From: Wolbachia endosymbiont of Litomosoides sigmodontis
GTDB taxonomy: Bacteria > Pseudomonadota > Alphaproteobacteria > Rickettsiales > Anaplasmataceae
DNA: 32,000 nucleotides
NCBI RefSeq assembly: GCF_013365435.1
Contig: NZ_CP046577.1
Location: forward strand, 360,001 to 392,000
Direction: 5' to 3'
The translations under genes and the position numbers were made by a program. Of this stretch, positions 29,334 through 30,509 are shown in pieces (within the stretch, counting starts at the first letter, position 1; the number at the start of each line of letters is the position of its first letter). The notes beneath the pieces are model-generated. The model was not told the DNA's origin and searched no databases. It worked only from the letters and a program-made list of their open reading frames with translations.

Positions 29334-30509
29334 ATGTCAGATATAATATCAATTGCTTCAGACCATGCTGGTTATGAATTAAAATCGGAAATAAAGCCTT
29401 ACCTGAAAACTCTGGGTTATAAAGTGCTAGACCGTGGCTGTGCTGCTGAGCAAAAGTGCGTAGATTATCCAGACTATGCTATTAAGATAGTGGAAGATAT
29501 AACAAACAAAAAAGCAGATTATGGAATATTAATCTGTGGCACAGGTCTAGGTATGAGTATTGTAGCAAATCGCTTTAAAGGAATACACGCTGTTTTATGT
29601 AATAGTGTTGAGATCACGAGATTAGCCAGAGAACATGGTAATGCAAATGTATTGTGTCTTGGTGCAAGATTTACTGCTAATGGATTAGCAAAAGATATAG
29701 TCAAAAAATTCCTTGAAACAGAATTTTCAAAAGAAAGCAGACATAAAAAACGCCTTGATAAGCTCAGCAATATAGTCTTTTCTAGTGAGAAAAAAAAAAC
29801 ACAAACTTATAACGAAAATGAGGTATCAAAATTTGCTAAAATGGCAGGCGAATGGTGGAATGAAAATGGCAAATTTAAGTCATTACATATGATGAATCCT
29901 ATAAGAGTGCTTTACATTATCAAGAAGATAAAAGAGTTAAAGAAATGTGATCTAAAAGAATTATCATTGCTTGACGTTGGGTGTGGTGGTGGCATTTTAT
30001 CAGAGTCAATGGCACGTGTTGGTATTAATGTTTTAGGAATAGATGTATGTGGAGAAAACATAAAAGTGGCACAGTTACATGCAAAAAAAGTAGGGTTAGA
30101 TATAGAGTACATACATACCAGTATTGAAGAGCTAGGCAATAACAAAAAATACGATGTGATTCTGTTGATGGAGGTAGTTGAGCACGTACATAATTTAGAA
30201 CTTTTTATGAAAAAAGCAATAGAATTATTAAAACCAGAGGGATTAGTATTTATATCAACAATAAATAGAACTATTAAATCCTTCTGTCTTGCAATAATTG
30301 GTGTGGAGTATATATTAAACTTGCTGCCGAAAGGTACGCATAATTGGAGTAAGTTTCTTAAGCCATCAGAGATTGCGAATCACCTAAGAGAAGGTAATGT
30401 AACATTACAAGACATGGCTGGTATGGAATATAACGTAATAAAGAATGAATGGAATTTAACTAAAGGTGTGGACGTTAACTATATACTTTGTGGTGTGATG
30501 AATAGTTAG
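29334..30509 (+). CDS. Single ORF fusing ribose-5-phosphate isomerase B (N-terminal ~150 aa) to ubiquinone biosynthesis O-methyltransferase UbiG (C-terminal ~235 aa)
   Basis: N-terminus: IASDHAGYELK, ILICGTGLGMSIVANRFKGIHA, GNANVLCLGAR (RpiB/LacAB). C-terminus: EVSKFAKMAGEWWNENGKFKSLHMMNPIR, LLDVGCGGGILSESMAR, LLMEVVEHV, GTHNWSKFLKP, GVDVNYIL (UbiG). No stop between them, and the junction contains A10 at 29790-29799. ATG 29334 preferred to the tracked 29301. Confidence 0.8.
   Translation: MSDIISIASDHAGYELKSEIKPYLKTLGYKVLDRGCAAEQKCVDYPDYAIKIVEDITNKKADYGILICGTGLGMSIVANRFKGIHAVLCNSVEITRLAREHGNANVLCLGARFTANGLAKDIVKKFLETEFSKESRHKKRLDKLSNIVFSSEKKKTQTYNENEVSKFAKMAGEWWNENGKFKSLHMMNPIRVLYIIKKIKELKKCDLKELSLLDVGCGGGILSESMARVGINVLGIDVCGENIKVAQLHAKKVGLDIEYIHTSIEELGNNKKYDVILLMEVVEHVHNLELFMKKAIELLKPEGLVFISTINRTIKSFCLAIIGVEYILNLLPKGTHNWSKFLKPSEIANHLREGNVTLQDMAGMEYNVIKNEWNLTKGVDVNYILCGVMNS

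Follow-up and report, generated by a model that had tools for sequence, protein, structure and literature searches.

The rpiB and ubiG genes of the Wolbachia endosymbiont of Litomosoides sigmodontis form a single open reading frame, and it is very probable that the encoded RpiB-UbiG protein represents a true fusion made as one polypeptide, ancient in origin and typical of the genus Wolbachia. Of its two halves, RpiB is a ribose-5-phosphate isomerase of the non-oxidative branch of the pentose-phosphate pathway, and UbiG is a SAM-dependent O-methyltransferase of ubiquinone synthesis. Within the window, i.e., the 32,000-nucleotide stretch of contig NZ_CP046577.1 that was analyzed, the fused frame occupies positions 29334 to 30509 of the plus strand and consists of 391 codons followed by a TAG at 30507 to 30509. 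The original prediction that a complete RpiB runs without a stop into a complete UbiG was borne out, since both profiles are matched over their full length and above cut-off in this one frame.

Domains were assigned with Pfam and NCBIfam profiles, using the curated equivalog cut-offs for TIGR01120 and TIGR01983. The RpiB domain covers amino acids 5 to 147 (29346 to 29774, plus strand), where the TIGR01120 score of 160.9 bits exceeded the cut-off of 138.65 (profile positions 2 to 142 of 143); the match to PF02502 (LacAB_rpiB) reached 177.4 bits over profile positions 1 to 138 of 138. The UbiG O-methyltransferase domain is located at amino acids 163 to 384 (29820 to 30485, plus strand), for which TIGR01983 reached 304.6 bits, the cut-off being 102.95 (profile positions 1 to 228 of 228). 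Between both domain matches lies a Lys-rich linker, VFSSEKKKTQTYNEN, at amino acids 148 to 162 (29775 to 29819, plus strand). As had been predicted for a linker of approximately 15 amino acids, its DNA contains a run of ten adenines (A10) at 29790 to 29799 of the plus strand, which is read in frame and encodes (E)KKK(T). Among the solved structures, several RpiB chains, including 1o1x and 4em8, were matched by amino acids 5 to 147, and E. coli UbiG (4kdc) was matched by amino acids 158 to 385 with an E value of 1.5e-56; no chain spanning RpiB and UbiG together was found among the PDB matches.

The frame is open from an in-frame ATG at 29301, 11 codons upstream of the ATG at 29334. Outside the nearest filarial relatives, the codon matching 29301 is not ATG, and since the upstream start is lacking there, the conserved ATG at 29334 is the likely start codon as judged from the aligned sequences. 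The extension MSLSHARSFSY encoded at 29301 to 29333, which results in a 402-amino-acid ORF, is common only to these nearest filarial relatives. Downstream, an ORF-free spacer of approximately 570 bp (30510 to 31077) separates the fusion gene from metG. A terminator-like hairpin was not found in this spacer, and promoter-like sites were no more frequent there than in shuffled sequences.

Both domains are under strong purifying selection. The median pairwise dN/dS values for 30 fused orthologues were 0.13 for RpiB and 0.08 for UbiG, as compared to 0.31 for the linker, and 124 of the 391 alignment columns were invariant, including the SDHxG, CGTGxGM, RH, and LDxGCGGG motifs. The RpiB half has its active-site motifs, namely, SDHxG near the N terminus, the CGTGxG loop with the catalytic Cys, and the C-terminal RH, whose catalytic roles are those described for the RpiB structures of E. 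coli and M. tuberculosis. S9, D10, H11, G13, C68, G71, G73, H101, H137, and R140 were invariant in 28 fused orthologues, and so was, in the UbiG half, motif I of class I SAM binding (LDxGCGGG), represented by L213, D214, G216, C217, G218, and G220. An AlphaFold2 model built on 28 orthologues consists of two confident domains and a low-confidence linker, with pLDDT values below 50 at amino acids 148 to 152; the pTM of 0.55 is in line with two domains that have no fixed mutual orientation. A flexible, poorly conserved Lys-rich linker would join two globular domains. Judging from the conservation, the RpiB and UbiG halves most likely act independently, and each is predicted to have a catalytic activity of its own.

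The fusion was then placed in the context of the genus. The named relatives of the fused protein are all from Wolbachia, and a search of 60 species-representative Wolbachia genomes identified the locus in 58 of them; the two genomes without a match are just 67% and 71% complete. An uninterrupted fused frame is present in 54 of the 58 genomes. In one further genome, G064, the locus is broken by contig ends, and the contig on the RpiB side stays in frame across the linker as far as the first UbiG residues, whereas the two halves are in different frames in the remaining three (G016, G057, and G071). The DNA of the junction could be read in 55 of the 58 genomes and is in frame in 52. The orthologues are approximately 390 amino acids long and share 66 to 94% identity over the full length, with the domain order unchanged. 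The closest named relative, from the symbiont of Litomosoides brasiliensis, is 94% identical at the amino acid level, and this independent assembly has the identical A10 in the identical frame, so that the A10 in the window is very probably no artefact of assembly. As an orthologue, the locus is an ordinary representative of a fusion found in nearly every Wolbachia.

Beyond Wolbachia, 1.84 billion cluster representatives were searched with phmmer, and among the 50%-identity clusters only P0035 covered both domains. Its sequence is of the Wolbachia type, and the fusion consequently appears, at the level of available sequences, to be confined to the genus. Other long matches in two stretches turned out to be tandem methyltransferases or tandem RpiB proteins and were discarded as RpiB-UbiG fusions. 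Two more sequences of the Wolbachia type were noticed (P0036 and P0135). One is a 337-amino-acid fusion that UniRef lists under the stick insect Timema poppense, where it is named as a 'mitochondrial' COQ3-like protein; this entry is a symbiont contamination or a transfer into the host assembly. The other, a separate 166-amino-acid representative, is a frameshifted fragment of a Wolbachia-type RpiB.

An in-frame start from which UbiG could be made separately was searched for. It had been claimed that there is none before UbiG except the internal ATG at 29841, and this was confirmed: no ATG, GTG, or TTG codon is in frame between the linker and this position. The internal ATG (29841 to 29843, plus strand) encodes Met170. 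Most Wolbachia orthologues have an Ile at this position (K-I-A-G-E-W-W), and none of the orthologues was found to have another start codon before the conserved E-[IV]-S-K-F helix. There is thus no conserved UbiG start, and throughout the genus UbiG is translatable only as the C-terminal half of the fusion. Consensus scans for an internal promoter of UbiG gave no more sites than in shuffled sequence, and no terminator was detected. The alternative of a genuine fusion, which the original prediction had left open, is consequently the one that gained support from the frequency of the fused state, the purifying selection on both halves, and the lack of a conserved UbiG start.

The length and sequence of the linker vary across the genus. 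In the 52 in-frame genomes, its A run corresponds to A10 in 21 cases, which is the most common state in the genus, followed by A7 (14), A6 and A5 (5 each), A8 (4), and A9 (3). The deepest-branching in-frame genomes carry A5 to A7, and in the most divergent lineages (67 to 75% identity) the linker, for example NHMHSIFNKKITSNEKE or NNIVSRRVSTCNKDE, contains no long run. Since the frame stays fused with anything from A5 to A10, the fusion does not depend on the homopolymer. It had been proposed that a fusion widely conserved with a non-homopolymeric linker would be an old and ordinary one, and this is largely what the Wolbachia orthologues revealed, in that most are fused and many of their linkers have only A5 to A7. 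Base composition and a genome-wide census of runs exclude that the A10 is statistically unusual: 14 A/T runs of at least 10 were observed, as compared to approximately 14 per base expected from composition, and seven sense-strand A runs of at least 10 are located within long ORFs, including that of the linker. AAA accounts for 70% of the Lys codons in this genome, and 15 of the 72 runs of at least 3 Lys in long ORFs contain AAA-AAA-AAA. The A10 is best read as AAA-AAA-AAA-A, i.e., in-frame Lys-Lys-Lys-(Thr) codons, and not as a switch.

The three genomes with different frames, G016 (L025/L039), G057 (L049), and G071 (L048), all have a 1-nt frame change exactly in the poly-A tract of the linker. 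G071 has A9, as compared to A10 in its close kin, G057 has lost one base in the poly-A stretch, and G016, a metagenome-assembled genome that corresponds to the Wolbachia of Ctenocephalides orientis, has A10, the in-frame length being A9. The RpiB ORF of these genomes comprises approximately 194 amino acids, and their UbiG frame is without a start before the conserved N-terminal helix. The shifts could be real events or assembly errors. Frame changes were audited over approximately 400 kb per genome (G016:C1:850001-1250000, L084 to L103, in the case of G016), with the fused genome G074 as a control. They were detected in 6 of 145 conserved genes in G016, every one of them beside a run of at least 6; in 4 of 96 conserved genes in G071, two of the four beside runs of at least 7; and in 1 of 116 conserved genes in the control. 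This suggests genome-wide homopolymer-linked errors or erosion in G016, and for the shifts in G016 and G071 assembly error or general erosion seems at least as good a fit as a dedicated switch. To the extent that these sequences can be relied upon, the linker tract may be fragile, and some lineages may tolerate or rescue a split form.

These data bear on the second alternative of the original prediction, namely, two genes whose separation depends on the length of the A run and whose expression is modulated by slippage. This alternative is not supported at this locus, where in-frame A10 is the commonest state of a tract that is also fused at A5 to A7. That the living bacterium has rpiB and ubiG as separate genes, with the fused frame being a homopolymer-length error or a phase-variable state of replication slippage, is extremely improbable: homopolymers are error-prone in sequencing and three other Wolbachia assemblies are shifted at this tract, but 52 independent assemblies are in frame, including those with A5 to A7, the nearest relative has the same A10, the shifted state deprives UbiG of a start upstream of its conserved N-terminal helix, and the audit fits error or erosion and not a dedicated switch. 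We also consider it very unlikely that the fusion is genuine but that slippage of the RNA polymerase on the A10 is frequent enough for a meaningful share of A11 or A9 mRNAs, and with them an RpiB-only protein, be it mere noise or a means to control the RpiB:UbiG ratio. A/T runs have been reported to be the main sites of transcriptional insertions in E. coli as well as in Buchnera, with a rate that rises exponentially with run length up to 9 to 11 nt (PMC5574713), A10 is the most frequent tract state, and the +1 frame stops early enough to leave RpiB near its normal length. The consequences predicted for both changes were verified from the alternative frames; A11 results in ...EKKKNTNL and a stop after 5 codons, and A9 in a tail of approximately 35 amino acids that ends in ...NLSHYI before a later stop. 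Against a role of slippage, 31 of the 52 in-frame genomes have A5 to A9, with A5 to A7 in the deepest branches, so that no long run is needed for function, and the presence of six other sense-strand runs of at least A10 in long ORFs implies that the linker run is not special. Some A9 or A11 transcripts of the fusion gene are plausible, but they are needed for neither product.

It is, finally, also very unlikely that the A tract is a recurrent break at which G016, G057, and G071 have been split again, with a startless UbiG kept alive by transcriptional slippage, and at which slippage in the A10 genomes provides a useful RpiB-only protein. The one point in favor of a special role of the tract comes from the three frame-shifted Wolbachia genomes, each of which has its shift right there. 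A slippage-prone tract is not supported for the genome studied here and finds some support elsewhere in the genus, in three 1-nt shifts that are possibly assembly errors. Precedents exist in Buchnera and Blochmannia, where, according to the citation in PMC5574713, frameshifted genes at poly(A) tracts are rescued by slippage (Tamas et al. 2008, PNAS 105:14934), and rescue of a poly(A)-tract frameshift by polymerase slippage was reported for Blochmannia vafer (PMC3017870). Like these cases, the locus in the window has an A run of approximately 10 inside a coding region of a reduced, AT-rich endosymbiont genome. However, the genomic frame is broken in Buchnera and Blochmannia and restored by slippage, whereas it is intact here and slippage is not needed; of the hallmarks of rescuing slippage, a run of approximately 9 or more is present at the window tract (A10), and an interrupted genomic frame is absent.

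The single-polypeptide fusion can probably be traced to an arrangement of the two genes as in sister genera. The original prediction had recommended a comparison of the locus in related genomes, and this revealed fused genes in nearly all Wolbachia genomes with the locus, with runs from A5 to A10, and separate, adjacent genes in sister genera. In other Anaplasmataceae genera, rpiB and ubiG are usually adjacent and on one strand, i.e., in the same order and orientation as in the fusion; their products share 44 to 55% (RpiB) and 43 to 63% (UbiG) identity with the corresponding halves, and the boundary motifs RH-x-x-R-[ILV]-x-K-L at the C terminus of RpiB and E-[IV]-x-K-F at the N terminus of UbiG are common to both. 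Four low-GC sister genera have an overlap of 4 to 14 nt between the rpiB stop and the ubiG ATG, which lie in different frames, as exemplified by ...GRHTQRIEKIDSYL and its stop over MNSTVNQNELLKF and by ...GRHRIRVDKLDLSKNEDL and its stop over MKTFSEDEVYKF, and a GC-rich sister genus (L059/G079 and L061/G081) has a spacer of 80 to 115 nt between the genes. A 424-amino-acid open frame over both genes in G079 was rejected as a fusion, since, on direct translation, two ORFs of the same frame were found to be separated by stops. The two genes are far apart or on different contigs in genomes with a size near 0.9 Mb as well as in the order's other families. In contrast to the differing frames with an overlap or a spacer in the other Anaplasmataceae, the frames in Wolbachia are merged, with neither a stop nor an ATG. 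Alignment of these junctions with that of Wolbachia (RH-K-x-R-L-D-K-L-S-N-I ... K-K-K-K-T-x-T-Y-N-E-D-E-I-S-K-F) places the merger between KLxNI and TYNEDE, which is the segment with the A run; the linker and its A run are thus located on the former boundary between the rpiB stop and the ubiG start.

In the proposed scenario, an ancestor would have had rpiB directly upstream of ubiG, with an overlap between the rpiB stop and the ubiG ATG, each in its own frame. Within this A-rich overlap, a small indel would have merged the frames at the expense of the rpiB stop and the ubiG start, and UbiG would from then on have been made only as the C-terminal half of the fusion. The fusion is locked in because the downstream gene has lost its own start. 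The ancestral adjacency is observed, and the exact fusing mutation we infer; the comparison with sister genera suggests that a small indel fused two translationally coupled neighbors before the genus diversified.

The fusion is already known through public annotation. NCBI names relatives such as P0024 and P0029 'multifunctional ribose 5-phosphate isomerase B/3-demethylubiquinone-9 3-methyltransferase/2-octaprenyl-6-hydroxy phenol methylase' or, for proteins of 385 to 391 amino acids, 'bifunctional ... UbiG'. The window protein is a plain orthologue of this annotated RpiB/UbiG fusion, without any difference of substance, and only the linker VFSSEKKKTQTYNEN and the possible 11-codon upstream extension are lineage specific. 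A full-text search for Wolbachia together with ribose 5-phosphate isomerase or ubiG retrieved no paper that describes the fusion. The present analysis makes one small addition, which consists of the proposed origin from overlapping neighbors and the position of the A run on the old boundary, where it is perhaps an occasional breaking point.

Annotators should leave the fused ORF as one gene and not "correct" it into two, and split calls at the linker tract in other Wolbachia assemblies are possible homopolymer errors. The locus is also a clean example, albeit of modest value, of how a fusion may originate when a small indel merges overlapping, coupled neighbors. With one contig of 1,045,802 bp (1.05 Mb) and a GC content of 32%, the genome is 99.86% complete. 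RpiA (PF06026) is absent from it, whereas 11 control genomes do score with this profile, and neither a second UbiG nor another ribose-5-phosphate isomerase was found in the genome. The fusion is therefore the sole copy of both predicted activities, and since the only RpiB and the only UbiG reside in one protein, two pathways of this filarial-nematode Wolbachia would fail together if the fused protein were lost.
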